A stretch of 61,051 nucleotides of DNA, the filler included, from Hausera hauseri (Eukaryota): NCBI GenBank assembly GCA_046269625.1. It is 12 parts of 12 records of this genome, joined end to end, with 100 filler letters (N's around TTAATTAATTAA, not from the genome) between each part and the next. Parts side by side here need not be neighbours in the genome. Positions count along the whole stretch, not along the records: positions 10,560 to 15,121 come from JBJURY010526679.1; 11 more parts are not named here. One strand, 5' to 3'. Below the pieces are notes generated by a model. That model was not told where the DNA came from and did no database searches. It saw only the letters and a list, made by a program, of their open reading frames with translations. Each line of letters starts with the position of its first letter. Within the stretch, counting starts at the first letter, position 1. The translations under genes were made by a program, and so were the position numbers. Below are positions 5,348 to 61,051 of this stretch, piece after piece.

Positions 5348-6743
5348 TCATACGGACCGATGGCGGTTTTCATTTCTCTTAGTTCCCATTCTGAGTTTTA
5401 GGACGATTAGAATGACAATTTTGGCGACTAACCGAAAAATCGCAATTAATATAATGAGAACAAACTTTGATAGTACAACAATTGATACGATCGGTAAAGT
5501 GGTTAATCTCATTGGTGCTTGTGTGGTGACTGGAGTTGTGATTTCATTGTCTATGTTTTCGTATATATGCGATTCTGCGCAAATTTCATCTAAGGTACAC
5601 AATGTAACTGTTTGATTTTGTTTATCCTGTGCATATATTTGTATTATGTAATCGGATTGTGGTTTTAACAAATTACATTCTGTCTGGTAAGTGTTTTTAA
5701 ATAATGTTACAATTTGATTATTATACGTTGTTCGGCAGCTTATGTGTATATCGTAATTTAGCTTCGCTTTTACAGAGAACAAAATTCTAGATCGATGTGC
5801 TGAATATTTAATAGGTATACTCTCTAATTCTATTTTAGGCACACCGCTTGATGTAACGTTTTCCGTAATGGCACTAACTCGAGTGGTCCTGCTTCTGGTT
5901 GTTATCTCCATTGGAATCTTCCATATTCTATTTTCTGGGTAATAAGTTTGCAAACGTATGCTCGGTTTATTTGGTCGTACTTGATATAAGTCAAATCTTA
6001 TTTTGAATTCTTGGTTTACTGGTAGTTTACAACACGGGTGTTGCACATTAGCATGAACAGAACAGTATTCTATTTTCGGGATTTGCCCGTTTACTGCTTC
6101 GAAAACGATACTAATTTCTTGACTAAAAGTTAATCCGGTTCTAGCATTTATTTGAATATATAGTTTTTCCTGGTTTACTGAAATCATTTTGATATTTTCA
6201 TCTAATAGCCCTATATTTGGATCGGTGGATTGTAACATTTCGTCGAATTTTATTTTGAATCGTCTGGCCCAAGTGTGGATAACTAACTGAAGTTATGGGT
6301 TTACTTCGATATAGACTTCCGATGTGTCTGGTAAGTATAGTCTTTAAGTAAGAATGCAGATACGTTCATAACTTATGTCGCAGCACTGTGTATAATCTCC
6401 AGGTTCCAAATAACAGTTTTTTTACTTCTTTTGATGTTACATCGTATAGTACAACTTGAAATTTTCCGAGATCGTGATGAGGTCTCTAAGTTTTAAATCC
6501 AACACGCATAGAGTCAGGTGAAAAATAATGAACCTTTATTGATCGTAACAGAATAGTGTCTTCTCGTTTTTGAATTTCTCCGGCCGTTGGTTTATTTTCT
6601 GTTATAATGTTTTTTGGCTTTAATCCACTTTTCCGAATTCCATATACGTCTCTTAGCGTAGTTTCATCATCCCACCATTGAGTTTGTGCTTTTGGGATAT
6701 ACGAAGAAGCAATTAAGGATAGTGCTAAAAGTATCTGAACGTA
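5348..6743 (-). pseudogene. Type I membrane protein with fibronectin type III-like domain(s), in frame with the integrase tail
   Basis: Hydrophobic signal-like YVQILLALSLIASS, FN3 strand-F motif LLKPQSDYIIQIYA, Thr-rich stalk, TM segment LPIVSIVVLSKFVLIILIAIF and a basic tail. Disrupted between 6490 and 6240. Confidence 0.6.
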
Positions 6744-6779
6744 TGAGGTCGGTCTAGCAATTATTGAAGTTTTTGTCTC

Positions 6780-7900
6780 ACGTTGTCGTAAATTGTAACG
6801 TTTATTGGGTCGTATATCTGTCTTAACGACTCTCTGTACTGATACGACCTCTTCCTTTCCATTCTTGTTGATGTATACCGTGGTTGGGGTAATTTTAGTA
6901 ACTTCGTTCGGTTCTCTGCCTGTACGAGTCAGTTTCAAAGATGTACCTTTCTTAGCTACTGGGTAATGTACATAAACCCAATTTCCTGGTTCTAAATCGT
7001 TTGGTTTTACTTTCTTATCACATTGTCTTTAAATTGCTCTTGATATTCCCGAGACAATTCTTTGGCGATTTCCCAGCACTTCTGCAAAATTCTGTTCTAT
7101 ATCTTCGGGATTGAGCGTGTATGACGTCATTCCTAAATCTGTGTGTAACACAGCTTCACGTTTATGCATCATGAAGAATGGTGTAAATCCTGTCGCTGGA
7201 TGTGGTGTTGTACTAATGGCAAATTGAGTTCCTTCTAAAAATTCGTCCCAATCTTTGTGGTCCTTGGCTACTACTGTGGATAATATGTGTATGACAGTTG
7301 CATTCATTCGCCCAATCATTCCGTTACATTGAGGATGGTATGCGGTGGTAGTTAACCGCTCAATCTCAAATATTTTACTAATTTTCTCAAACAGTTCGCT
7401 AGTAAAATTTCTTCCTCGATCTGTCAGTATTTGATCCGAGGGCCAATATCGACAAATAATTCTTCTCACTACAGCTTCTTCAAAAGTTTCTGCTCTTTGA
7501 TCGGTTATCGCTACTAATTTGACAAAGTGAGTTAGTCGATAGATACGAGTCAAGATATATTTATTATTTTCGTGAGTCGTAGGTAGCGGGTCTACAACAT
7601 CCATTGATATGGCTTGCATATGTCTGTCTGGTACGGCAATTGGTTTTAGCTTTGTCATGTACTTTTTCGTCTTTTTCTGTTTAGTTTCTCATACTTCGCA
7701 AGTATTTACCCAATTATTCACATCAATATAGATACTGGGCCAAAAGTATTCATTCAATATTCTTTCCAACGTCTTTTTCCATTACATGTGCCCTGCTAAA
7801 TATGAATCATGTTCTGCCATTAAAACTTCGATGCGTAAGCCTTTTTGGATGACTATTAATTTCCTTCCTTTTCTTTCATAATACAAAATGTCTTCGTGGT
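6780..7900 (-). pseudogene. Integrase (HHCC finger, DDE core, C-terminal SH3-like domain)
   Basis: HDSYLAGH...YFWP, ISMDVVDPLP, ILTDRGRNFTS, TTAYHPQCNGMIGR, TGFTPF and an RYNLR tail. Confidence 0.9.
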
Positions 7901-8013
7901 CTTTATCGTTCAAGACACAATATTTGTGTCCATGTCTGTGCAAATGTTTCCTAAGCTGTCGTCCTTTCGATACTATATCGTTTTTAGAAAATTCTATAAT
8001 CTGCTGGATAGCT

Positions 8014-8707
8014 TTATCCCTTTTCTTTGTCCAGCGTCAAAAGGCGTTGACGGTCTATTAATTCTTTGAGCTGAGCTTTCTTCATTATCGTAGTTGCACT
8101 TATCTTAGTTTTTAGTCTCGACAATGCATCAGCATCTACGTGTTTGTTTCCACGATTATACTGAAATTCGATATTATATCTAGAAATTTCTTCAATCCGT
8201 GTGTTAAGCCTGCAGGTGGGATTGTTTGCTCGTACCTTCAACGTTGTGACGGTTTTATGATCAGTAACAATTATACGCATAACGTTGAAGTGTCAAAGTG
8301 TTTTTTTACGGCCAGAGTTTCCAATTCGGTAACGGAATAATTTTTCTCGGCCTTTCTAAGGATCGTCCTCCATAAGCTATTGGATGTTCCAACTCTTCAT
8401 CCTCTCGTTTCTGAGCTAATTCGTATCCAATACCTTCTTTACTGGCATCTGCCTTAATTATAAATGGTAAATTGAAGTCTGGCTAGAGTAAAACTGGTTC
8501 GCTTGTTAAAATCTTCATTTCGTCGAAAGCCTTTTGTTCGACGTCCGTCCATTTCCATTTAATTCTTTTCTTAAGTTGACGATATAAAAGTGCATTTATT
8601 TTCGAATTATCTGGCACATAGGTGGTGTAATATCCACTTAAACTTAGCCAATATTTTAACTCTTTCTGATTTTGTGGCTCCATGCAATCTGATATTTTCT
8701 TCAACAA
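8014..8707 (-). pseudogene. RT thumb/connection and RNase H
   Basis: WKWTDVEQKAF, EPVL, ADASK, YSVTELE, IIVTDHK, HVDADALSR; broken by stops and frameshifts. Confidence 0.88.
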
Positions 8708-8728
8708 CGGTTTGTCTGCTTTTGATCC

Positions 8729-9460
8729 TCATTCGCCAACTATATGGCCAAGGTAGGATACTGCATTCTGAGCCCTTTTACATTTCTTTGGGTTCAATTT
8801 TAATCCTTCTTGTTTTAATCTCATCATTGTACGTTCAATATCTTTTAAGTGTTTCTCTTCTGTCTTCGACGCTATCATTACATCATCTAAGTATGCAAAG
8901 GCGTGGTTTTGTCCCATTAACATTTTATTCATCATTCTTGTAAAAATAGCTGATCCAGTGGTAATACCAAACGGCATGCCCTTACATTCATAAACACCAT
9001 CGTGTGTTTTAAACGCGGTTTTATAGCGGTCTTCATCCTTAATTTCCACTTGCCAATATCCGGATTGTAAGTCCAGAGTAGTAAACCATTTTGCTCCTGA
9101 AACTCTATTTAAAGCTTCTTTTACTGATGATAATGGGAACGAATATTTCATCATAATGTTATTTAGTGCCCTGTAATCAATACAAAATCGATGTTTTGTA
9201 GTATCTTTCTTTTTAACCATAAGTATTGACGAGTACCACGATCTATAGCTGGGCGGAATTATATCGGCTTTAAGCATCCGTTCAATTTCTTTTGTTATCT
9301 CGGGTCTTAATGAATGTGTCGGAGGATACCATTTCGGCATCACTTGATCTTCAAGATCTATCTCTTCATTTGAACCAGACTTTTTCTTAAGTGGCATAGT
9401 CAATTTTAATGCTTTTGCTCTACCTATATCTTCGTCACCTTTAGTGATAATTGACTTAAA
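8729..9460 (-). pseudogene. Reverse transcriptase (Ty3/gypsy)
   Basis: RFCIDYRALN, LDLQSGYWQV, KTAF, MPFG, AYLDDV, YLGH. Confidence 0.95.
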
Positions 9461-10559: not shown

Positions 10560-11545
10560 CATTGGAGCCAGGTTTCTTTTTTAGTGGAATGGTTAGTCTT
10601 AAGGTTTTCGCTCTACCTATGTCTTCTTCATTTTGGGCGATAATCGACTTATATTTGCATAGTAGTTCGTAAAATTGACAATATGCTTCTGGTGAAAATT
10701 TAGTTTCAACATAAGGTGGAAACTCGGAATATTTGTACGGCTTTTCTGCGATCGTTATTGCTGATACCTTATAAGTATAACCTAACGTAGTATTGGCATA
10801 TAATTTTACAGGAGTTGGTGCGTTATTCACTAATCTGACTGGTACCCTTCCTGTCGTTACTCTCGTCAAAATGTTACTAAATATGATATTTGGATTTACG
10901 TCTTCTTGTGGTTAAAAATATACTGGTTGGTCACCTTCTTCGCGGATTTGGGCATAAATTAACATTTCGGTTGTAGGCGGAATATTTTCCTCTACAGGGA
11001 TCCATACTTCTTGCTTCCTTTCTTTCATTGTTTTAATACCTTTCACTGGGTAATTGTTTCAGTATGTCGTAACCTAACACTACGTCATCGGTTAGCTGGT
11101 CCATTACGGCGACGTTGTGTCTAAGAATTTGACCCATTAAATGGACTAAAGGGCTCCATTTAAATTTCGGTTTGGATTCTTGCCCGAAGGCTCCTATGTT
11201 GCCTGGATCTGATGATGATGCTGGCTGCAGTTGTTTTCGAAGTGTCGGCGGTATCGATTCTGATTTGATAAACGATTTCTCTGATCCGGTGTCTATTAAG
11301 GCATAGACTTCCCAATCTCCAATGGTAACTTTCGTGAAGGGTCTCCCTTCCATAACCGCTCCATAACAACTTGACATGTCCTTTGGTCGTTTAATTGAAG
11401 AAATTTTATATCCGTTTATCGTTATTTCTGGTGATGAAATGATGTTCTCGGTCAACTGCTTCAGTTCTTCTTTAGGATATAAGTCGTTGATTGTTATGTT
11501 ATCTGCATTGTTTCTAATTAATGGTTTTTGTACTATCGGATTTTA
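10560..11545 (-). pseudogene. Retropepsin and pre-RT spacer domain of a second copy of the large gypsy family
   Basis: VYALIDTGSEKSFI...DVVLGYDIL. PVRLVNNAPTPVKLYANTTLG and EEDIGRAKTLRLTIPLKKK match C2. Confidence 0.88.
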
Positions 11546-11926
11546 GAACAATTTCACTCCTTGTGTTCCCCAGACTGTTGATCTGGTCTCTATATTGCGA
11601 GCTATTCTCCGTGAGTACAATATCCGATGATCATCTTCTGCTCGTCTCTGATTAGTGATCTGCATTTTCTTTAATAATCCGTATTGTTTTGTTCCTTGAT
11701 AAGGATCTTCATAGCTAAAAGGTTTCTGACAGAATGTCAATCTATAAGACACCATAGATGTTTTGTCGAATTCTTCGTATATTGGGGCCGTTGGCGGAAT
11801 GATGGGCAAAGGTGCCTTGATTACTAAATACATTTTGTGTCTATTTGGTCCAAGGATTACTTCTCCTCCCTTAGGCTCATCATCATCTGAATTATTTCTT
11901 CGCGTCATTGGTTTCTTACCTTTACG

Positions 11927-11935
11927 TTTTAGTCA
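11927..11935 (-). promoter_or_regulatory. Candidate stop-codon readthrough site (UGA CUA) between the glycoprotein tail and pol
   Basis: Minus strand reads ATA TTT TGA CTA AAA; ORFs on both sides share one frame. Confidence 0.45.
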
Positions 11936-13810
11936 AAATATGGGTCTTGCTCGTCGTTTGTAATTATAATAGCCGACATGGCGTTCAACGTCATTTTTCC
12001 ATCGATTTTCTTCATAAGCTTTAAGCATTTTGCCGAATGGGGTGATCATTGCGGTTAAAATCTTGCAAGAAAATCCTGTTAAGGTGAATATTTCGTACCA
12101 ATTTATAATTGCTTGGATTACCGCCTTTACTAGTTGTATTAAGAAATAGATTGCTAAAAATCCAGATGCAGCTTGTCCAAAATTTAAAAATCTTCCCCAT
12201 ATTTTGTAGAGTATTTCTGTGGTTATCCGTTGGTAACGGTTCGTACCAAGTAAGGATTCCCATTTAGCCTGGTAGCGGGTATCAACTACTACTGATGCCA
12301 TAGCTCGGTTTAATTCGTGTGTTCGTTGCCGTGGAAAAGCGAGAAATTGTCGAAAATCTTCGATCTCTTTTGGTCTGTAAATGCCTTTTTGAGATGTATC
12401 CTGGAACTTGACGTCGGTAATTCATTTTGCTAAATTAGTTCCAGTTAGTTTTTTAGGGATAATAGCGACACCTCCATTCGGTAAGCTAACCCAATCTGTT
12501 TCGCTACGTCTGAACATTGGTTCCCCAAACTTGCCTTACAATCCTTCAAAATGGTTAGTTGTGTCGCATTATCGAGCAACACTCTAGTGAGAGGCATGGC
12601 TAGACGTGGAGTATTCTGGTAGATTACAGGAAGCTCTGGTATGCATCGTTTTTCTTCAACGTTAATTGGTACATCTCTTTTCTCGCATTCATATGTCAGT
12701 AAAACGTCGCCAGTAACCCGACCAAAATTTCCTTCTCTCATGAGAATAATCGGTGAGGCTAACTCCGGATTCGCATAAACAAGAGCTAATTTTGTTCTCA
12801 TAATTTGCGTATCTAACTTGTAGTCATTAACTATCATTTTGTAGTACAGTTCGGCTATTCCGACTTGTCCTTTATAATAAAAATAATCGTCTCGGTTTTT
12901 CAGATAGTCTTCGATTCGAAAGTCTTGCGTTTCTAAATTGTATGTTATCGCGTTTATCTCCGTTTCTGCGACGAAAAACGCTTCGTAGTTAGTGGTAAAC
13001 ATTACTACTTCGCAGCGTGAAATCAATTCCTTTTTTATGAATTTCAGTCCATGTTGATCAGAGATTAATATCGTAGGTGCATCATGCTCTGATACGTCTT
13101 CACGTGCTCTTGAACTGATGTCGGATTTATCTACGTATCGTTTCCCAGTAGTTTCATTGAATTTCAGTTCTTTAATCTTAATAAAAGTACAGGCTTTTCC
13201 GGCGGGCGGTCCCCATATGATGACAAAAATTCTGAAAGCGCAAGTTCCGTCTTGCATGTGACATTTTTGATTCTCAGTATAGAACTTAGTGACGCTATGG
13301 AACATTACTTTTTGAACTCGCATTTCTGATTCGTAAAAGTCTACTACCACTACGTTTGCCTTCAGCCCTTTTCCGGTATCGTATTCCGTTCCACTACAGT
13401 GCCCGTTATGCATATGCTCTGATTATTTTTCCGGGCTGCATTTCTAATTCCATGCTATCCCATTTCAGTATTCCGGTTTCTCGGGCTTTTTTGCAATGTT
13501 GTCTTTCCAAATTCATTGGAATTGAAGGGGTTGTTGGTTTAATTATCGAGGAGTGTCCGTGCATTAACCCACAATGAAAAATACTACGAGATCGTCTCAG
13601 CATACATTCCATGCCATCCAAAGATATAAACTCTTGTTGTTGGTATAGAAAATAGTTCTACTCCTTAGTTTCCAATTTATGTGGTCTGGCATCTTCACAT
13701 GCTTCTAAGTAAATTAATGAGTATTTTTGGCCCAGCTTAAATCTATCGCAATCGTAGACAGTGACAGCACCCATCTGTTTTATTAACATCATTATGGTGG
13801 GCAAACTGAT
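11933..13810 (-). pseudogene. env: Chuvirus-like (class III fusion) envelope glycoprotein
   Basis: Cysteine and motif pattern of chuvirus G: xxYDC, SLxxLEAC, C...IFHCG.HGHSS, GHCSGTEY, GRVTGDVLLTYEC, CIPELPV, PLTRVL, GIY...FLAFP, then C-terminal hydrophobic segments. One internal stop and frameshifts. Confidence 0.8.
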
Positions 13811-15121
13811 TAACCAATTAGATTCATTCTTCCGGTTGATGTTATCCGTTGTCGTCAAGTTCCGTATGATGTCTCCGAGCCCATTATTATTGTTCCTTTT
13901 GTCTTCTTCTTTGTGAAACAATTTTAGCCAATTTACTTCAAACGGAAGTTTTCTAGACGCTTTTCGTGCCAAACTCGTAGCTCGATTTAGTTCATTTTCT
14001 CGATTTGGATTTGTCTTAATTTCCAAGTACAATAATATTTTTCTCAGCTCTTCTATCGTATTTCCCACCATGATCTTCTCGACTATTGCGTCGTCAGTTA
14101 GGCTACTTTTTGACAGTTTGAAACGCAAACTTTTCATTGTTTTAGCTGCGTTAAATATTGCCTTTTCTTTGTCATTTAATGTATCTCCGCGGAGACTTGA
14201 ATAATTTACAATACGTATTAAATTCTTTATTAACTCGCTTAATTCCTCGTTATCCGCTTTAAAAGTGGAAATCGACATCTGTCTTAACTCTCTAATCAGT
14301 TCTCCGTTATAGTCGATTTCTTCTCGAGGCTTCCTTGGCCTGCGACTGGACGTTTTGGTCTTGGAACATTAGTTGGTATTCCACTTAGTGGTACTAGATT
14401 CTTGTCGTATTGTTCTTTGTCTTCATCCGTCTGTAAATACTCGAAATGCATCGCCGAATCTCGTACTGCCATGATTTGTCCTACGCATTGTTCCGTTTTA
14501 GCATTCCGCGGGCTTCTTTTGTCTGTTCGTTGGCTATTATTACTACTATCCGATTTGTTTCGCCGGGGATGATTCCGACGTCTATTAACTGTTCTAGATC
14601 ATCGAGTATTCTTCCTCTAAAGTAAAATCTATAATTTAGCTCATTTGTTCAGCCATTGTTCAGTAATCATTCTCTTACGTCCTTTACATAGGAATGTGTA
14701 GCTAATTAACATTCTTTTTCTTACATCCATTCGGATAATATCATTATCTTTATCACTAACTCAGGTTTATCTTTTAAGATTTTCGCATACTTCTTTATTA
14801 AAAGTTTCGGCACTGTGTTGTAAATTATGTTTTCACTGGATAATTTAGTTAAGGTTGGAATGAGTTGCCTGAGCTTATTTTCAGTCATGTTTACATTATT
14901 TGATTCCATCAAGTCCCTTTCAGTTAACTCTGAGTCTAGGAGCATCTCCACATTGAATTTCCTGTTCTGCGGATACATTTGTATTTCATCTAAGTGTACT
15001 GGAGTTACCGGATTTTCGGCCGTTATTTCTTCTAAATAAGCATTCCATTCTGGTTCATTCCCAATATCTGGGAGTCCGTAATCTACAAGAGCTATGTTCG
15101 TTCTTTTCACATTTTCTCGAA
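13811..15121 (-). pseudogene. Degenerate copy of the large pre-env ORF (ubiquitin-like domain, AT-hook remnant)
   Basis: Collinear with 40080-41370 (LRQLIPTLTKLSSEN, YRFYFRGRILDDLEQLIDVGIIP). ORF 13658-14278 reads continuously into the glycoprotein signal sequence. Confidence 0.85.
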
Positions 15122-34407: not shown

Positions 34408-36332
34408 AACGTAATAAATATCCACCTAATATTTGACAAATTGTGTTTTGCTGATGTTTTGTCGACCAAATAAATATCTATCTAATATTTGACTAATTGT
34501 GTATTGCTGATGTTTTGTCGACCTAATATATATCCGAAGAATATATGACTAATTACGTTTGGATGATGTTTTCTCGACCTAGCACATATCCGCATAATAT
34601 GACTAATAGCGTTTAGGTGCTGTTTTGTCGACCTAAGAAATATGCATCAAATATTTGACTAATTGTGTTTTGTTAATGTTTTTTCCGCATAATAAATATC
34701 CACCTAATATTTGACGAATTGGGTTTTGTTGATGTTTTGTCGACCTAATAAAAACCCACCTAATATTTGACTAACTGTGTTTTGTTGATGTTTTTTCGGC
34801 ATAATAAATATCCATCTAATATTTCACTAATTGTGTTTCGTTGATGTTTTGTCGGCATAATAAATATCCATCTAATATTTGACGAATTGGGTTTTGTTGA
34901 CCTTTTGTCCTTGTAATAAATGTCCGTCAAATATTTGATTAATTGTATTTATTTGGTGCTTTGTCGATTTAATAAAAATCCACCTAATATTTGACTAAAC
35001 GTTTTTTGTTGACGTTTTGTCGAACTAATAAATATCCTTTTAATATTTGACTGCTTATGTCTTTTTGATGTTTTGTCGACCTAATTAATATCAATCTAAT
35101 ATTTGATGAATTGTGTTTTGTTGATGTTTTCTGGACATAATAAATATCCATCTAATATTTGACTGCTTCTGTTTTGTTTATGTTTTGTCGGCAAAATAAA
35201 TACCCATCTAACATTTGACTGATTGTGTTTTATTGATCACTTGTCCACCTAAGAAATATCCATCTAATATTTGACTATTTGTGCTTTGTTGATGTTTTGT
35301 CAACCTAATAAATATCGGTCTAACTTACGACTAACTGCGTTTGGATGATGTTTTGTCGATATAACAAATATGCATCAAATATTTGACTAATTGTGTTTTG
35401 TTGATGTTTTTTCGACCTAATAAATATCCATCTAATATTTGACTAATTGTATTTTGTTGACGTTTTGTCGACCTAATAAAAATCCACCTAATATTTGAAT
35501 AATTGTGTTTTGTTGAAGTTTTGTCCAACTAATATATATCTATCTAATATTTGACTAATTGTGTTTTGCTGATGTTTTGTCGACATTATAGATATCAATC
35601 TAATATTTGACGAATGGGGTTTTGTTGATCTTTTGTCGACCTAATAAATATCCGTGTAATATTTGACTAATTGAGGTATGTTGATGCTTTGTCGACCTAA
35701 TAAAAATCCACCTAATATTTGATTAATTGTGTTTTGTTGATGTTTTGTCGACTTGATAAATATCAATCTAATATTTGACGAATTGCGCTTTGTTGATGTT
35801 TTGTCGACCTAATAAATATCCGTCTCATATTGGCTAATTGTGTTTTGTTGATGTTTTGTCAATTTAATAAATATCCACTTAATATTTGACTAATTGTGCT
35901 TTGTTGATGTTTTCTGGACCTAATAAATATCCATCTAATAATTGACTGCTTCTGTTTCGTTTATGTTTTGTCGGCAAAATAAATACCCATCTAACATTTG
36001 ACTGATTGTGTTTTATTGATCGTTTGTCCACCTAATAAATATCCATCTAATATTTGACTATTTGTGCTTTGCTGATGTTTTGTCAACCTAATAAATATCG
36101 GCCTAATATACGACTAACTGCGTTTGGATGATGTTTTTTCTATCTAACAAATATACATCAAATATTTGACTAATTGTATTTTGTTGATGTTTTGTCGACC
36201 TAATAAAAATCCCCTTAATATTTGACTAATTGTGTTTTGTTGATGTTTTGTCCAACTAATAAATATCCACCTAATATTTGACTAATTGTGTTCCGATGAT
36301 GTTTTGTCGACCTAATAAATATCCACCTAATA
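34408..36332. repeat. 56-bp tandem satellite, about 34 copies
   Basis: Consensus GACCTAATAAATATCCATCTAATATTTGACTAATTGTGTTTTGTTGATGTTTTGTC; e.g. units start at 35414 and 35470. Confidence 0.95.
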
Positions 36333-40305: not shown

Positions 40306-42999
40306 TTAATTTGTGTTTTCTACCATGATCTTTTCTATTATCGACTCATCGGTTAAGTTACTTTTTGATACTTTGAAACGTGAAATTTTCATCATTTTGG
40401 CTGCATCAAATATTATCCTTTCTTTATCGTCTAACACCTCTCCTCGAAAACTAGAATAATTTACAATTCTTATTAAATTTTTCATTAGCTCGCTTAATTC
40501 TTCGTTATCTGGGCTAAGAGTCGGAATCGACATCTGTCTCAATTCTCTAATTAATTCTCCGTTGTAGTCCACTTCTTCCCGCATCTTTCTAGGTCTACCT
40601 ACTGGGCGTTTCGGTCTTGGGCCTCTGGCGGTTATTGCACTCAATGGTACTAAATTTATATCGTATTGTTCCTTATCTTCGTCCGTTTGTAAATACTCAA
40701 AATATAATGCAGCGTCTCGGACTCCCATAATTTGTCCAACGCATTGTTCTGCTTTAGCCTTACGTGTAGCTTCTTCTTTTGTCTGTTCGTTAGTTATTAC
40801 TACCACTATCCGATTTGTTTCGTCGGGAATAATCCCGACGTCTATTAATTGTTCTAAGTCGTCGAGTATTCTACCTCTAAAGTAAAATCTGTAGTTTAAC
40901 TCGTTTGTTCCACCATTGTTTATCAGCCATTCTCTTACGTCCCTTACGTAGGAATATGTGGTCATCTCGCATTCTTTTTCATCCATCCATTCTGATGACA
41001 CCATTACTTTTATCGTCACCGCAGGTTCCGCCCTCAGGATTTTAGCGTATTTCCTTATCAAAAGTTTGGGCACCGTATTATAAATTGTGTTCTCACTAGA
41101 TAATTTAGTCAAAGTCGGAATGAGTTGTCGTAATTTATTTTCAGTGATATTTACGTTAACTAGCTCCATTAAGTCCCTTTCAGCTAGCGCTGGATCCAGT
41201 AGCATCTCCACATTGAATCTCCTGTCTTCAGGATATGCTTCTATTTCGTTTAGCTGTACTGGAGTCGTAGGTTTTTCGGCGAGTATTTCGTCGAAGTATG
41301 CATCCCATTCGGGTTCGTTTTCTACATCCGGAAGTCGGTAAGCCATATTAGCCCTTTTGACGTTTTCTCGAATTTCCTTTAATTTAGGTTGTATTTCTTT
41401 CATTTTCGTAGTTCGGAAATCTACTCCATTACCACAGGCATAATGAATCATTTTCAGTAATTCACCGTATTCGTTAGAGTCGATCAACCCTTTTTGGTGA
41501 TAATCTGTCAATTCTAGAATCACATCCTTTTGCCATCTCTGTACAAATTCTCGTTTATTCTTAATCTCTGATTGGGTAAAAGCATATTTATTCCAATAGA
41601 TTTCAAGCTCTTTTGTTATTTCCTCTAACCTTATCGCTCTTTGTTTCGTTTTGATACATGTTTCTTCTACTTTTTGTATCTTGGGCATTAATTGCCTCAT
41701 CTGCTCATAACTGATTTCTGCCATTTCCACCAATAAATTAGTTAACTCATTCATCTCATTTATAACCTTTGAATCAGGGTCTATGGCATCCGACAATTTC
41801 TTCACGAACTTGTGCTCCTGAAAACTAAATTGTGGGTCGTTTCCTATTTCTATCAACTGGGTATGGAAATTCTGATCTGACCTGTCCATCCATTCTTGAG
41901 GTTTGTGTAGAAGTTTTAGTTCATCCGTTAACGTATCTCTGTATCCTGGGCAAATGTCCAAGGTTTCGATGTCTTGAGCAGAAATTTCGCCGGTTGGTTT
42001 CCCGATTAGGTATTGAATTCCTTCTGGTTGGGCAATCCTTAACTTTGAGTTTACATCATAAACCATATTCCGTTTTTCTGTGAAGTTTGTTTCTTCGATT
42101 AATTTATAGATTACCTCTATCGTCGATGCTTCTCGCTCTCTTTCCATAAATTTTAGTTGTCGTAGCGCTTCAAATTGAGTTCGAATATCTATCTCTACTC
42201 GCAGTGTGGCTAGATTATGTGCACTTTCCTCTAGTTGTCTTTTTGCCGTTGGTTCGCTTTGCGGGAATTCCGTCTTACGATCCTCTACCAATCTAGTTAG
42301 TCGGGATACTAACTCAGACCATTCCGACAATTGATTTGTAATTACAGGTTTCGCCATTATGGCTTTATCTAAAATCTTATAAGCATCTTCTAACCCATCG
42401 TCCGGTCCGTTCAGAAATTTCATAACTCGTCCAATATAACTATACTCGTCCTTGTATTTGTCTAACTCTACGATACAGGCCTTCATTATATATTGAGTCT
42501 CCTCGTGGTTTGGGGACATACTTTGGTTCCTTAAGCTATAAATTTGTGCTCGCTTTTCATTTTTTATCCTCAGCCGATTTTCCAAGTTTATATATTGTTT
42601 GGGTGTAGCAAGTGCGACTTTTATCATCTCCGTTAGGGGAGGAATATCCAACGGGTTTATACCCAATATTTCCAAGTCGGTATTACTGCGATGGTTAACC
42701 GGTTTTTTCCTAAGCCGTTTAATTATTGCATACCGAATTTCGTTTATGATACGTTCTAAGTTACAAACTACTCTCTTCAGTTTTGGGTTCTCTTCTAGAG
42801 TAGATAGTAGCTTTTGAGCCTCAGTGACTTTTACGTCAGCTCTATCTTTGTTCTTATTCAATCCTTTTACAAACTCGACTCCACTTTTAATCCACGATTC
42901 CAATTCGTGTTTCCATTTTAATAATATTTCCGGAGACACCTCTTCAGGCTGCCTCACATCGATTGCTTCAACGAACTTTCCTTCGCTACGTAATTTCAA
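40306..42999 (-). CDS. 897-aa segment of the Gag-extension polyprotein: helical/coiled-coil region, ubiquitin-like domain (~41019-40790), AT-hook (~40612-40586)
   Basis: E/K/L-rich helical sequence, YRFYFRGRILDDLEQLIDVGI and KRPVGRPRK; same frame as the upstream zinc-knuckle ORF. Confidence 0.7.
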   Translation of the reverse strand: MKLRSEGKFVEAIDVRQPEEVSPEILLKWKHELESWIKSGVEFVKGLNKNKDRADVKVTEAQKLLSTLEENPKLKRVVCNLERIINEIRYAIIKRLRKKPVNHRSNTDLEILGINPLDIPPLTEMIKVALATPKQYINLENRLRIKNEKRAQIYSLRNQSMSPNHEETQYIMKACIVELDKYKDEYSYIGRVMKFLNGPDDGLEDAYKILDKAIMAKPVITNQLSEWSELVSRLTRLVEDRKTEFPQSEPTAKRQLEESAHNLATLRVEIDIRTQFEALRQLKFMEREREASTIEVIYKLIEETNFTEKRNMVYDVNSKLRIAQPEGIQYLIGKPTGEISAQDIETLDICPGYRDTLTDELKLLHKPQEWMDRSDQNFHTQLIEIGNDPQFSFQEHKFVKKLSDAIDPDSKVINEMNELTNLLVEMAEISYEQMRQLMPKIQKVEETCIKTKQRAIRLEEITKELEIYWNKYAFTQSEIKNKREFVQRWQKDVILELTDYHQKGLIDSNEYGELLKMIHYACGNGVDFRTTKMKEIQPKLKEIRENVKRANMAYRLPDVENEPEWDAYFDEILAEKPTTPVQLNEIEAYPEDRRFNVEMLLDPALAERDLMELVNVNITENKLRQLIPTLTKLSSENTIYNTVPKLLIRKYAKILRAEPAVTIKVMVSSEWMDEKECEMTTYSYVRDVREWLINNGGTNELNYRFYFRGRILDDLEQLIDVGIIPDETNRIVVVITNEQTKEEATRKAKAEQCVGQIMGVRDAALYFEYLQTDEDKEQYDINLVPLSAITARGPRPKRPVGRPRKMREEVDYNGELIRELRQMSIPTLSPDNEELSELMKNLIRIVNYSSFRGEVLDDKERIIFDAAKMMKISRFKVSKSNLTDESIIEKIMVENTN

Positions 43000-44032
43000 G
43001 GTTTTATATAATTTCTCGGCGTATTGCTGCTCTTTCCCGGATATGTCGACTTGTTCACTAATCTGCTTAATCTTCTGTAAATTTCGCTATAATATTTCGG
43101 GCTCTAAACAATAAATTGTTATTTTCTTTAGTTCGTCGGCGTTTTTCCATGAGCGTCGGATTTTCCACTTTTTTGAATTGAAATCGTCATTGTTGGCCGT
43201 CTCTTCCTCACTAATGGGAAGTGGGCAGATTTCGTTAATTTCATTAACTCACTCTATCGGCTCCGCTACTCCGACAGGTGTGTATAAACCGATTTCTGGT
43301 TTATCCAAATTAATCTCCGTGTCACCTTCTACAACGACAGTTGGGTTTTCCTTCTCTTCAACTTTCTCTCTGGTTATTTTGGAACGTGAACGACTTCTAC
43401 GTTTGGTTTTTAGTGAAGAGCCACGGCCTCTATTTTTCGTAATTTTAAGTATTAACGGTTCCATAAATTCTTTTTCCGCTGTATCATCTTCAGTAAGCTT
43501 AGGTACTTTTTCAACTGCAAACTCAAGCTCTTCGTCTACGTCGACCGCCGTCGATGTGCCTGGTTTATCAGATGGCTTATTGTTTGTCGGAACACTCTTC
43601 TTCCGTGTCATATCACTTCGTTTATGTGCTATTGCGCGTTGGTATTCGGTCTCAGGCTCTGCTAAGCCATGATATACTTCTAGCAACCTCAACTTATCTG
43701 CGTACTCTCTTCTAGGCATCAAAATTTGTAAGTTCGCAGTGGCTGGCTGAGCATCTAAGAATTTTCTTAAATCTTGTATATCGATGATAGTGCCTGTATT
43801 TCCACAAACGCCATACTTTGCTTCTAAGTTCTCGTTAGATCTAATCATACTAGTCTTATTTGGTTCAGTAAATGAAACGCTACGCGGATTCGGGCATGAC
43901 CTCGAAATGTGTCCTTCTTTGCCACACGTAAAACAAACTATATTTCCATTTTTGCCGACTCTCTGTCGACCGTCTTCGTTCACCGGTGACTTAGATCTAT
44001 TTATACTTTTACTATACTGATTTGACGAACTT
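43000..44032 (-). pseudogene. gag: Gag nucleocapsid region (CCHC zinc knuckle) and downstream linker
   Basis: CFTCGKEGHISRSC; the frame continues into the 897-aa ORF across two isolated stops. Confidence 0.75.
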
Positions 44033-45240: not shown

Positions 45241-46554
45241 TGTACATGGATAACGATATGTGGGGTTGAACGAAAGAAAAAATTGCGAACATTGGCGTTA
45301 ACGAGTAGTAAATTATTAAGAGTTAAGTAAAAATCAGAAAGGGCAGTAAAATGTTGTACATATTTGTGTAAGAACAGTGTGTTTATGTTATATTGTACGT
45401 CAGTATTTCAGAGTTATTTATCAAAAAGGAAAACGAGAGCTGTCACAGAACCTAGTGGGCGATGTGGTGTCGGAACAGACCATGGCATGAGACCCACTGA
45501 CATAGAACAGATGGTCGGGCGGTCGGTCACACTGGTGCACCCGAAAATCCGGGGGGGACCGACTTCCCTCCGGTGGATCCCGTCAGAGATACAAACCTCA
45601 ATTTCAGTGTATCTGTTGTCCGAAAATGTTATGTCGAAAAAAGGTAGCAATTCAATTCCAATGAGTTGCGTACAGGTACAAAACTACGTGGCAGCCCATG
45701 TGGGAAAAGGCGAGACAACATGTGGACGGAACATATCGGAATGTATCATAATTTCCTCGTCATCACCAAGTTTCAAGGGTAATAAAACTCCAACATCGGT
45801 GAATGTCAACAAGTATGGAATAGAGTGTTGTAAACTTTGAGTACTTTTCAATTTCTTCGAAAAAACGCCAAATATTAGTTTCAACTTCACGTACGAAGTA
45901 TGTTGGTAGAGAATTAAAAGCTGGGCCATAGTTTTAAAATATTTCTCGGAATTAGTACAGTTGTAAAGTAAGCGGAACAACGCAGTCCTCCATGCGGATA
46001 AATTGCAGTGCACCATTTCAACGAGTGGAAAATGTTTACCGGTGACAAGAAGCAATACTGTAAGAAATTCAAGGGGGAAATTACCTAATGAAAATTTCGA
46101 ATCGTGGTCGAAGTGTTGGTCGAAGATTGAATCAATGCTGTCTACGCCAAACGAGAGTTTGAAGGAACGTACAGGGTTGATCATGCGAAACAATACACCA
46201 ATGTCCTTAAACTGTAAAAAGGCACAAAGCAGGTTATGAACGTAATACTTGAACGTATCAAGACAATACAAGTGAAGGATTGTTGACAACGATCGTAAGA
46301 CACCGTTAGACCGCAATACGGAAAAGGAGATATGGAAATACGACAAGATATATTGTACTAATGGAGACTGGAAATCATATACAAAAAATATGGCAACTGG
46401 AGGAAATAAAATATATCATGAAAGGATATATGAAAAAAAAACAATTGCCGACAAATTTGCACACAACAACCACTCTTATTCCATCGTACAGCAGTATCCG
46501 TTTAATGCTGTCCGTGGGATCTGCGAAACCACCCGTCCAACTATAGCATTCGAA

Positions 46555-46785
46555 GGAACGGTCGAATTTTCGATAAAACAGCATCTTCATCATTCCAAAT
46601 GGGAAGTACTTCGAAACCGTAGGCACTGCAAAGAAGTTTTAAAAGCCCTAATATTTGTGAATTGGCCCGCAGTGATTTGCTGAACATTTCGAATGTAGCA
46701 TAATGAATATAATAAAATGCAGCGATCATTCCAAAATTGGTCGGTGTTACATCAATATCGTCCCACTGAATGATGTTGAATGAAC
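46555..46785 (-). pseudogene. SNRNP200: Brr2/SNRNP200 Sec63-domain fragment
   Basis: DDIDVTPTNFGMIAAFYYIHYATFEMFSKSL...LLCSAYGFEVLPIWNDED. Confidence 0.8.
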
Positions 46786-46794
46786 TTTCATCGG

Positions 46795-47966
46795 TATTTT
46801 TTGTCGCACACTGCGTAGAACAAATCGACAGCTCTTTGACGAACTGAGACATCTCTTTCACTCTTTAGCGCCGATATAATAGTTTCTTGATTTTTTAACT
46901 GCTTCGTGACTGAATTCACTTGACGCCAATAAACACATCGACTCCAATGCCAGGTATAATAGATTGGTCTCGCGGTTAGACAAAAACTGTCCAAGTAGAT
47001 TACATTCGCGAACAAATAAATTTGGATCACATCCATATGAATTATTAAATTATTAAATTAATTCCGCAATTGAATGTTGAACTTTTATCGATTTTGGAGG
47101 TTCCTGAGCTTTACTCAGAATGCTTTCTAAACATTGGAGTCTACTTCGAACTGGAGCATCATCAGGAGGTGGATAGCTTTGTAGTATCCTTCAAAGCTGA
47201 ACTGAAAGCCAAGGCGTAGTAACAAAATAATAAGTGTAATCTTGTAAATCGCTGTATGACGACGTAACAATACGACGCAATTTCGATACGGCTAGTGAAA
47301 TACAAGTTTTGTACTCAACGGGCGACCGTTTTACAAGAATTTCTATTAAACTAACTGCAGCTGTAAGGACGCCTATGTGTGGGTCATTCAACAAATGAAT
47401 CACTAGTGACGTCCAATCTTCGAAATTAACGAGATCAGTCGCTGCTCGGCTAAGTTTAAGAAGACAAAAGCGGCACTCTGTTTAACTGAATCTCTGGTAC
47501 CTCTGGAAACCAATAGTCTTGGAATTTCTTTTGCAAAATTCTCCGTTCTTTCTCGAGTACCAATACTGGCAATGCGTTGTAAAGCTAGCTTGACGAAAAC
47601 CGGATTTCGGCTGCTTAAATCATCTTTCAATCGTTACACGACTAAGTTCATTAAGGAATGCGATTCGTTTATTAAAACATAAAAAGATATCCAATTTGTT
47701 TCTCTGTATACTTGTTAGAACATAATAAATTAACAGCCTCGGAATGACCGAAATCAATATCATATCCAAGAAGGAAAATAAATAACAACTTACAAACATT
47801 TTTTCTTCTGATATCCTTCCAGAGTTTTATCGCCTTTAAACTTTGAACGAATGTTGGCTAATTCTCTATTAATCCTTCCAACTTCAGATTCTTTGCTTTT
47901 GCAATTTCGAATGTTAGATATAAACACAGCCAAACTGCGCATTGAATCTCCTTTGAACGTTGGCAT
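46795..47966 (-). pseudogene. AP2A: AP-2 alpha-adaptin N-terminal region, intronless, frameshifted and internally interrupted
   Basis: [26 protein letters not shown]...[55 protein letters not shown]. Confidence 0.92.
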
Positions 47967-48290
47967 GTTGTCTGGATAGTATTTTCATGCAAATATAAAA
48001 TAATAGTTTTGTAAATACAGTCTAACGGGAAGACCCCGCGACGGAAGATGAAGTGTAACAGCCATCGACGACATCGGGCAAAAACGCCGCAACCGGTTGT
48101 ATCCAGCCAAAATGAGCCACGGGAGCACCACAGTCTTCATTTTAAAATATTTACCAAACACAGCTAGCAAATTTAAGCAAACTTTTATTANNNNNNNNNN
48201 NNNNNNNNNNNNNNNNNNNNNNNNNNNNNNNNNNTTAATTAATTAANNNNNNNNNNNNNNNNNNNNNNNNNNNNNNNNNNNNNNNNNNNN

Positions 48291-51705: not shown

Positions 51706-52215
51706 TCATCTTGGAGTTGATACCTCCAAGTTATTCTGCATCCGTCGCAAGTCAATCCTTATCCATTGGTGCCTGCGACAGTTTTGTATATATTGAATTA
51801 CTCTTATTAATATTACCACTATGATGACTACTGCGAGGGGAACTGTTACACTGATAATTATTAATTCTATTCGTGAATGAGTATAAGTGGCGCGCCTCGG
51901 TTTCACGGTGGTTTTGTATGAATATCTTGTCCCTTTGTACAATAGTTTTATTATCGCGTTACTTTTGGTTTGTGTTGTTAAGATTTTGGTGGACATGATT
52001 TGGTTATTACTGCCGATTAACTGCAGAATAACTGTATATGTCATGTTTGGAATAAGGGCCGCGCAGGGTGCTATCAAATCGTCTGGGGTTATTATACCTT
52101 TGGCTACTACTTTATTTCGTATTTTGCACGTAAATCTTATCATTGAAAAATCCAGGTCCAGCATTACAGAAATTATTAAAGAAGTCGGGGTTGTGATAAT
52201 TGTAACATTAGAATG
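51706..52215 (-). CDS. C-terminal part of an FN3-like single-pass membrane protein (5' truncated)
   Basis: ALIPNMTYTVILQL FN3 motif, then TM LIIISVTVPLAVVIIVVILI and a basic tail. Confidence 0.55.
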   Translation of the reverse strand, partial: HSNVTIITTPTSLIISVMLDLDFSMIRFTCKIRNKVVAKGIITPDDLIAPCAALIPNMTYTVILQLIGSNNQIMSTKILTTQTKSNAIIKLLYKGTRYSYKTTVKPRRATYTHSRIELIIISVTVPLAVVIIVVILIRVIQYIQNCRRHQWIRIDLRRMQNNLEVSTPR

Positions 52216-58270: not shown

Positions 58271-60509
58271 ACATAAAAACAAACTGCAGACAATATTCTT
58301 TCAATTCAAGATTATTCTAATTCCTCACAAATACTATTTCTTTGTCGCCTTAACTGTGTCTTGGTTTATTCCTTATTTTGTATTTGGATTGTCGCCCTTC
58401 AAATTGATGCATATTTTACATGCCAATGATACCGGTAAAATAAATTGATTTTATGATAAGGTGTATAATCATGACATGAATTCTTTATGTTGCCAGTATT
58501 CATGATTGTGTTCATTGTGTGACATAGGAAGGGCAGAAGGTAAAAGGGCATGCGTGCCCAATTGACAACTCTTTGAAAATAAAGGTTGTTTGTTTAGTGG
58601 AAGGTAAGATACCGTGGTGGGAGATGAGACGTCTTGTAGGATGTGATATTCCTTCACTGGGAAAGATCGACAAGATTAGATAATGAAAAATGGCAAGACA
58701 GAAAAGTACAGAAATAATTTCAGTGCTGGTTCCAGAGCAGGTAATATGAGACACCATTCCTGCTGGAGACATGTGGGACTCTCTGTATTCCCCTGTGAAG
58801 TTTAGCACGTAGTTAGTTTAGCACGTTGATAGTTGTAAATCGAAAAGAAATTATTCTGCAAAATAAGTGCGAAGTTAAAATTTCCTGCGATAAAACTGGG
58901 CAAAACAATCTCCATGTTTTCTCTATCAAAATGATATCAGTAAATTGTAAACAATAATGTTCATATGTTTCTGTTGACTGCACATTTCAGCTCGGAGATC
59001 CATTCAATATTTAAAAATCAAAATTTCCTCAAAGTTTGCATTCAGCGGAATTACAAGTAATAATTCGAATAATTATTTGTATCTGACCATTATTCACGGC
59101 AGCTAATTAACGTAACAAGACAAATTAATATATAACAAAAATAGGAACTTACTTCAGCGTAACCAGACTATGCGATATCAGATAGAGAGAGATAGCTAGG
59201 CTGTCCTCGTTATGACTTCGTAAGTAAGTTCTCCTTATATAGTGTCTAATGCAAATTGGGGAACATTAAAAAAATTGTTTCTTTATGCTGGAAACGCCTT
59301 TTAATTACTGTTTTAAACAAACGTTTATGATGGTGACGTTAGCGCTACTTTTGTTATGTCATGTGTATTGTATTTTTTAACACAATTTAATTTCGGTTAA
59401 CAAAAGTCATTGTTTTGTAGCCTACATAAAAATGACACGTCGTGGAAACAAACAATGAAAGTCACGATACTTTCTACAGGGCACATTAAACTCAAATGAA
59501 ATTTTGTCATCATAACTTTCACAAACCTAAATGTACTCAGAAAGTAAACACCTTCTTATTCGTCTCTCTTTCAGTTCCAACGTTTTCTTAAAGCTTCAAC
59601 AAATAACAATAAAATAATAGCTAATAATAAATAAAAAACCCATGGGTTTTCTTATGGACCCTGGACACAATAGGCACACATTCACCTAAATGATGGGTCA
59701 GCATCCCCTTTTTCCCTTTTTTCCTCACAAAAACGTATGATGCTACAGAAACCACTGTTGTAGATATCCAGATTTCGGATTTGATCATGGGGAAAGAAAA
59801 GATAACAACAAAGGACAACAATCAATTGATCCTTCTTCAACCCTGGACTCTCTTAGAGATTGGAATTTGGAAAGTGGGACAGCTACCTGAAATCAGCAAA
59901 AGCGCCGAAAGTGCCCTGGGAATGGATATCCAGCAACTGCATTTTCCAAGACATTGGTGTCAGATGTAAAGCGTCGATCAGAGCAAACTGTCAATATATC
60001 AACAAAGGGAACACATATAAGCTCGTGGTGGCAAGAAACCTACACGTCTATTAGATTGGGAGGCAATAAATAATATAACTAAGAAAAATGGGAAAAAATT
60101 ATGAATACTACAATTATACAGTGATATGCCAAAATTAGCAACGCAGACGACCAAACAAAATAAAATTTATCCGGCAAGGTGTCAAAACGAGACACAACAA
60201 TAGCAACGATAGACATAAAGGCTACAATGGGAAGTGGAAGCACAGGAAGAGAAAATACAATGGGGAAGGAAGGACTGGTTATCTGAAAGCTACCCAGCAA
60301 ATAGTCATTCCAACCACTACACAGGCCAGTGATGCAGATGGACAAATTAGAAATTTTAGAACATTACAAACATATTGATAAAAAGTGCTGAATAAACACA
60401 CAAATTAAAAATATAACATAAAGGTTTTACTATTAAATCTTTTTAGCTCCATTTCAGCAGCTGTCAGCTTAAGTTTTCAGGAACAAGCATTCACACTAGT
60501 ATTTTGCAG

Positions 60510-61051
60510 GAAAATGCAAATACTTACAAAGTAGAAACGCAGGATGTCCGAATCGAGGACTATCTGAAAAATAGAGACGATTACTTCTATTACAAGGGGC
60601 AAGTCGGAATAACGGAGTTATATCACAAAATGATAATGAATGACTGCAAATTAGACACCGAGATCATGAGGAATAAATTGGCCCTTATATACGCCGACCC
60701 AGAATTGGCTTCCCCAACAATTTCTATGAGGGAAGGAATTTTCGGTTGGGTCACGGGCAACGTACTGCCTACCTATGAATGCGAAAAGAGAGATTTACCC
60801 ATCAACGTAGAAGAAAAACGTTGCATTCAGGAACTTCCTGTCCTCTATCAGAATATTTCAAGATTAGCTACACCGTTGACAAGAGTGTTATTGGATAACG
60901 CTACCCAACCAACTATCGTTAAAGATTGTAATGCGAGCTTAGGAGAACTCATGTTTAGACTTAGCGAGACAGACTGGGTTAGTTTGCCAAATGGATGTAT
61001 TGTTGCAGCTCCAAATAAATTAACAGGAACAAATCTCGCCAAAGGAATTAC
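60510..61051 (+). pseudogene. env: Chuvirus-like glycoprotein, internal fragment (third copy), open to the window end
   Basis: ETQDVRIEDYLKNRDDYFYYKGQVGI...TYECEKRDLPINVEEKRCIQELPV...PLTRVLLDNATQ; collinear with the reverse complement of ~12420-12950. Confidence 0.85.

Follow-up and report, generated by a model that had tools for sequence, protein, structure and literature searches.

The planarian Burro/GYPSM1 elements, giant gypsy-like long terminal repeat (LTR) retrotransposons, were described in 2019 as carrying an envelope gene (env) in frame between gag and pol (PMC6431247). According to the Burro section of that paper, their polyproteins total 4,873-5,140 amino acids (aa) and comprise a CCHC Gag, a long insert with a ubiquitin/SUMO-like domain, an env that matches mononegavirus fusion proteins, a protease, a spacer, reverse transcriptase (RT), RNase H and integrase; Burro elements differ from one another in their MATH, BIR and ankyrin cargo (PMC6431247). 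Ty3/gypsy elements with the order GAG-ENV-POL and a herpes simplex virus (HSV)/gB-type, chuvirus-like ENV have been reported from Nematoda, Bryozoa and Platyhelminthes as "ancient errantiviruses" (Chary & Hayashi, eLife 2026, PMC13524379), in a text that also cites nematode endogenous retroviruses in which env and pol have switched places (Sacco et al. 2022), and chuvirus glycoproteins are found in BEL/Pao elements as well (Dezordi et al. 2020, PMC7642597). Here we describe an element of this kind from Hausera hauseri, in a window of 61,051 nucleotides that consists of 12 contigs of assembly GCA_046269625.1 with N spacers between them. In contig C3 (10560-15121, minus-strand coding, record JBJURY010526679.1), the first-pass annotation had recognized a Ty3/gypsy element with env between gag and pol and had known of no described family with this layout, a claim to novelty that is not supported in view of the 2019 report. 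The headline layout is already published, and therefore the C3 family adds a decayed, high-copy family and not a new kind of element.

Four copies were compared, namely, C3, C9 (39492-44032), C2 (5343-10459) and the end of C12 (60512-61051). The first three had been proposed to overlap as one family, which is borne out by alignments at 66-76% DNA identity that also bring in the fourth. C9 aligns to the front of C3 (75.5% over 1,850 aligned columns) and contributes the Gag zinc knuckle, and from C2, which aligns to its back (68.5% over 936 columns), come RT, RNase H and integrase together with a predicted membrane protein. The end of C12, on the plus strand, contributes an env piece (74% over 539 columns). 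Each of the five overlap blocks tested shows the highest identity at codon position 2 (0.81-0.93), an intermediate one at position 1 (0.72-0.86) and the lowest at position 3 (0.47-0.58). Because the third codon positions are the most diverged, the insert between Gag and env (hereafter X), env, the protease and the spacer that follows it diverged as protein-coding sequence. The family is an abundant, aged repeat: 15,488 contigs of run X1 map onto C3, covering 30 of 30 bins, most at 80-95% likeness. Judging from the overlaps, the four sequences are decayed copies of a single Ty3/gypsy family with a chuvirus-type env between gag and pol. The contigs end within the coding region, and any flanking LTRs, primer-binding site (PBS) and target-site duplication (TSD) would lie beyond them.

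The order annotated in C3, that is, the end of X, a signal-like segment, the glycoprotein, a transmembrane segment (TM), retropepsin and a pre-RT spacer on one strand, agrees with both Pfam and hydropathy (19-residue windows), and the zinc knuckle ascribed to C9 is confirmed by a zf-CCHC match at 43935-43894. Across the overlapping copies, the gene order is zinc knuckle-X-env-protease-RT, and the Pol order across C3 and C2 is protease-RT-RNase H-integrase, with gypsy-type domains throughout. An RT search returned 189 proteins; the best 120 of these are all at most 49% identical to the query, and the named labels among them include Ty3-gypsy, 17.6 and K02A2.6, with no BEL/Pao label. The class III, chuvirus-related nature of env is indicated by PF24664 (Monjiviricetes_fusion), which scores above cut-off in C3, C9 and C12, and in C3 matches in two frames (E 5e-35 and 1e-16).

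An intact relative, P0242, was reached by cluster look-up from the RT match P0019, a protein that belongs to the same cluster, ends in a TM and is the nearest by tree distance of the 114 RT matches placed in a tree (6 of the 120 were left out for short alignment). P0242 is a protein of 3,735 aa encoded by a single open reading frame (ORF) on an 11.5-kb contig. Its front half consists of a capsid, two CCHC motifs, an insert, a signal segment, env (PF24664, E 1e-91) and a TM, and its back half of the enzymes (protease, RT, RNase H and integrase), followed by a second signal segment, beta-rich repeats and the terminal TM. This protein is colinear with C9, C3, C12 and C2 at 26-39% identity (32-39% across the RT-RNase H-integrase region of C2). 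The intact order in P0242 thus shows independently that a natural element can carry this architecture in a single ORF. None of the 120 best RT hits of the 189, searched at lengths up to 2,000 aa, yielded an env, ubiquitin-like or helical-domain match. Likewise, no close env relative was found among 1,799 candidates in proteins of 570-2000 aa, nor in viral or metagenome contigs.

No copy in the window is one open frame today. All four carry stops, frameshifts or truncation; in C3 alone, the coding path is broken by 9 stops and 5 frameshifts. These interruptions are, however, copy-specific where they can be compared, as had been claimed for most of them: none of the seven C3 stops alignable to another window copy, and none of the three alignable C9 stops, is a stop in that other copy. 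At 11935, the site of a C3 stop that follows the env TM and could mark the true end of env, 96% of the depth in run X1 and 98% in run X2 have another reading. Thus, 0 of the 8 directly tested C3 stops are common to the family; the ninth, at 11545, falls outside the DNA alignment, and there C2 is open according to a protein-level match that spans the site. Two junctions are directly visible within stop-free stretches, from the end of X through the first signal-like segment to the start of env in C3 (13658-14368) and from the integrase C-terminus into the second signal-like segment in C2 (6486-7028). Between env and the protease in C3, neither an LTR nor a TSD was seen, and one frame runs from env through the tail into the protease without a frameshift.

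The single-polyprotein reading is supported because the breaks are copy-specific and because the intact relative has this exact order in one ORF, and both points bear out the earlier claim of an ancestral, membrane-threaded Gag-X-Env-Pol-membrane-protein polyprotein. We estimate at roughly 0.85 the probability that the active form of the family made a single Burro-like polyprotein threaded through the endoplasmic reticulum (ER) membrane. The strong hydrophobic segments are the same in the window copies and in P0242, namely, signal 1, the env TM, signal 2 and the last TM; they alternate and so fit one chain threaded through the ER. Gag and X would be made in the cytosol, signal 1 would send the env ectodomain into the ER lumen, and the env TM would bring the chain back to the cytosol for the protease, RT, RNase H and integrase, after which signal 2 would send a beta-repeat domain into the lumen, to be anchored there by the last TM. 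Host signal peptidase would presumably cut after both signals and retropepsin would free Gag and the enzymes; capsids would stay tethered to the membrane that holds both surface proteins, ready for budding as enveloped particles. Env would then fuse membranes, and attachment would be the most likely task of the second surface protein.

Several observations weigh against a single threaded chain. None of the window copies is intact, nor does any of them span the element; the picture combines pieces of copies that differ by 25-35%. Two C9 stops after the zinc knuckle, at 43251 and 43089, are covered by no other copy, and for the C2 break that separates signal 2 from the last open stretch, there is no other copy to compare. 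The segment that follows the env TM may cross the membrane a second time, in which case the topology would be inverted. As for P0242, support in the RT tree is modest (0.81-0.83), two other proteins branch closer than P0019, and X barely aligns to its counterpart (76/200 shuffles for the coiled part, 404/500 for the helical domain; the significance of weak protein matches was assessed pairwise by sequence shuffling).

The two C9 stops are where an alternative with the same element and gene order would apply, in which a programmed stop or frameshift downstream of the zinc knuckle terminated Gag, or a spliced RNA served as an additional source of env, and only a minor part of the product was the chain that runs from Gag to the last TM. 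For LTR elements, it is unusual to make Gag, Env and Pol in equimolar amounts. However, the two stops, 54 codons apart, look like decay, because C9 has three further copy-specific stops, and both P0242 and, as described, Burro pass from Gag into the insert without a stop; we consider this alternative improbable. It is harder still to credit that the env block landed in an ordinary gypsy element from elsewhere, as an endogenous viral element of its own or as a nested insertion. Insertions of chuvirus-derived glycoproteins are reported as common in invertebrate genomes, and C12 has an env piece without upstream element sequence, yet this explanation is largely refuted by the copy alignments and P0242: X and env share one stop-free stretch in C3 that is common to C9, env and protease keep one frame, all of C3 is covered by family contigs, and P0242 has the same order intact.

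A further alternative bears on function and does not conflict with the single-ORF anatomy. Under this scenario, env and the post-integrase protein would be relics or cargo of the cell surface, with a role inside the host cell or where cells touch, and the element would move inside cells without enveloped particles. The passages considered on Burro and errantiviruses report no particles or infection, and the family described here is known from sequence alone. Nevertheless, env diverged between copies under protein-level constraint (identity 0.90-0.93 at codon position 2 vs 0.47-0.52 at position 3) and is intact in P0242, and we regard a life without particles as rather unlikely. Returning to the threaded polyprotein, a more specific version of it is two-glycoprotein entry, with a class III fusogen before Pol, an FN3-like attachment protein after integrase, and signals doubling as membrane anchors of Gag and Pol at budding, all from one polyprotein. 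We put forward this version tentatively, as a possibility that may well prove wrong. Fusogens of the gB type usually need a partner for attachment. The sections on Burro and errantiviruses name none for the gB-type env of these retroelements, and a candidate in the same chain makes the cell-to-cell reach of Burro-like elements a testable question. If true, the two-glycoprotein reading would amount to an attachment-plus-fusion design in an invertebrate retroelement, of which no description was found in the portions of the literature searched.

The candidate partner is a predicted type I membrane protein in C2, with two or three beta-rich, cysteine-pair repeats, a short Thr-rich stalk, a TM (5494-5399) and a short tail; in this copy, it is broken between approximately 6490 and 6295. 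The annotated content of C2 holds, that is, the overlap with C3, the RT-RNase H-integrase block and the membrane protein, except that the "FN3-like" label given to the latter is a lead without a significant match. Atlas leads at 0.83-0.87 include fn3 families and are leads only. The FN3 fold itself is unconfirmed: there is no Pfam fn3 match, the best Foldseek hits in the PDB are antibody domains at E 0.08, the best VIA hit has Z 5.3, BFVD holds no credible match, and a three-sequence profile found nothing relevant in the PDB. The structural model of the ectodomain is all-beta, at low confidence (pLDDT 46). The last C2 repeat matches repeat 1 of P0242 (7/2000 shuffles), and the repeats of C2, C11 (another contig of the window, see below) and P0242 show weak mutual likeness, at 5 to 36/2000 shuffles in 4 of 10 pairs. 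The C2 and C11 ectodomains show no significant direct match (403/1000 shuffles; best repeat 134/2000), though both are weakly similar to a repeat of P0242 (at 7, 22 and 5 of 2000 shuffles). No description of such a post-integrase membrane protein was found in the literature searched; figures, Repbase entries, further papers and further supplement parts could hold one. In the main text of PMC13524379, the terms fibronectin, FN3, Burro, ubiquitin, accessory, polyprotein and fused are all absent.

Table 1. Predicted features of the C3 family, from Gag to the post-integrase membrane protein, with the fourth copy last (window coordinates).
Feature	Position	Strand	Basis and remarks
Gag CCHC zinc knuckle (C9)	43894..43935	-	Pfam zf-CCHC, E 1e-6 to 4e-6
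Insert X, E/K/L/I-rich part lacking membrane segments (C9)	41371..43086	-	ORF, composition
Ubiquitin-like (beta-grasp) domain in X, probable	40777..41031 (C9)	-	C3 counterpart 14517-14771, 76% identical
AT-hook-like motif (C9), presumed	40585..40611	-	Sequence; downstream of ubiquitin-like domain
Pre-env domain, ~140 aa	13907..14320	-	71% identical in C9; sits where Burro has a BCL2-like domain
Internal signal-like segment 1	13766..13816	-	Hydropathy 1.54 in C3, 2.0 in C9
Class III (gB/chuvirus-type) envelope ectodomain	12161..13765	-	Pfam PF24664; 30-35% identity to P0242 env
Env transmembrane segment and amphipathic segment	12017..12160	-	TM 12160-12104; amphipathic 12070-12017
Tail of ~220 aa, env to protease, same frame	11345..12016	-	Stops at 11935, 11545
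Retropepsin protease	11060..11344	-	Pfam RVP, E 2.5e-5; motif 11305-11285
Protease-RT spacer	10560..11049	-	62% identical to C2; occupies dUTPase-like slot of Burro
RT, RNase H, integrase (C2), decayed	6780..9337	-	Pfam RVT_1 (E 9e-36), RT_RNaseH_2, Integrase_H2C2, rve
Signal-like segment 2	6681..6746	-	Hydropathy 1.56; P0242 counterpart at residue 3322
Predicted type I membrane protein after integrase (C2)	5348..6680	-	ORF 5348-6292; hydropathy 3.02
Fourth copy, env fragment, end of C12	60512..61051	+	PF24664, E 1.5e-18; 74% DNA identity to C3

The front of the element is represented by C9, which begins approximately 30 codons ahead of the zinc knuckle, so that the capsid falls outside the window. 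The E/K/L/I-rich part of X opens a stop-free stretch of 926 codons (40306-43086) and, from its composition, is likely helical or coiled-coil; the top 19-residue hydropathy across 1,287 codons is 1.12. A search of 1.84 billion representatives yielded a single weak relative of X (P0001, 37% over ~150 aa), and there is no match in the PDB. X likely includes a ubiquitin-like domain, as suggested by three weak, concordant lines: a Pfam ubiquitin match below cut-off (E 0.008), matches to PDB sequences that are mainly polyubiquitin (best E 0.18), and fold searches with a model of pLDDT 43, in which ubiquitin, SUMO or PB1 folds head the results of both Foldseek and VIA (best E 0.04, Z 5.3). This domain also matches P0242 weakly (6/500 shuffles). 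The motif downstream of it, which we take to be AT-hook-like, recurs at residue 1022 of P0242 (27/500 shuffles). The pre-env domain has no match in Pfam, the PDB or Atlas, and a BCL2-like label for it was not confirmed in any of these.

Signal-like segment 1 has a positional match in P0242 at residues 1270-1290. Two stops (13660 and 12424) and two frameshifts (near 13415 and near 12529) interrupt the C3 env ectodomain. The C12 end (60447-61051, plus strand) is open at the site of a C3 frameshift, and its likeness to C3 starts abruptly near 60512. The env TM has a hydropathy of 2.16, and the segment next to it reaches 1.38 with a high hydrophobic moment; the corresponding pair in P0242 is at 1843 and 1876. 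P0242 has two RVP stretches, with a second, weaker protease-like stretch at residues ~2000-2090, ahead of the main protease, that was not seen in C3. A profile of the spacer matches 23 of the 120 best gypsy Pol hits (of 189), P0019 best of all. The spacer has no Pfam or PDB match, and a dUTPase-like label was not confirmed in either.

The remaining contigs, where a Pfam scan covered part of the frames, hold other sequences. C11 (48291-53172, minus strand) had been linked to the C3 family by architecture only; indeed, it has no significant similarity to C2, C3 or C9, but its gag piece matches the P0242 capsid (E 1e-6). It has an ORF for a membrane protein (51706-52215) and another of 333 aa that lacks a Pfam match, both of which lie upstream of a PBS-like motif (49559) and of a decayed gag, and may represent the 3' end or a long LTR of a related element. 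C1 (1-4150, minus strand) contains a different, nearly intact gypsy gag-pol with ORFs of 379 and >1,013 aa, the RT of which is 32-36% identical to that of C2, outside the C3 family. C7 (27970-34307, minus strand) encodes a decayed gypsy RNase H-integrase adjoined by pieces identified by eye as DNA polymerase B and a helicase fragment. In C8, units of ~55-56 bp are repeated in tandem across 1.9 kb (34408-36332), and there is a 31-bp inverted match (36330-36360/37939-37969). In C10 (~46300-48190, minus strand), a decayed, apparently intron-free AP-2 alpha adaptin fragment, 69-76% identical to invertebrate proteins over 116 aa, with about equal matches to arthropods, molluscs, a brachiopod and flatworms, is followed by what appear by eye to be a helicase-gene piece and gag.

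Compared with the known systems, the C3 family shares with the GAG-ENV-POL errantiviruses, as described in PMC13524379, the Ty3/gypsy pol, the position of env before pol and the chuvirus-related, gB-type env, which by eye is nearer to the Platyhelminthes C1a rows (Smed 1-6) than to the Nematoda rows shown there. Unlike the window copies, those elements are intact, which is an inclusion rule of the catalogue and not a lineage trait. The BEL/Pao elements described in PMC7642597 carry the same class of captured glycoprotein, whereas pol here is of the Ty3/gypsy type. The nematode endogenous retroviruses mentioned at the outset reportedly have a continuous gag-env-pro-pol ORF. They differ from the C3 family in having nematode hosts, as far as the citing text goes (Sacco et al. 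2022, in PMC13524379). Like Burro, as described in PMC6431247, the C3 family apparently had Gag, env and pol in one reading frame, judging from the copy-specific breaks and P0242, a ubiquitin-like domain between Gag and env, and very many copies, with decayed fragments as in some Burro hosts. Unlike Burro, it shows no MATH, BIR or ankyrin Pfam match from the knuckle to env in C9, has an estimated 3,700 aa from the knuckle to the end vs a total of 4,873-5,140 aa, and has a predicted membrane protein after integrase, with none mentioned in the Burro section of that paper. By analogy, then, the C3 family works like a Burro, a likeness by description and not by sequence, and belongs to the Ty3/gypsy GAG-ENV-POL class; its less familiar part is the in-frame predicted membrane protein after integrase, present in C2 and intact in the independent relative P0242.

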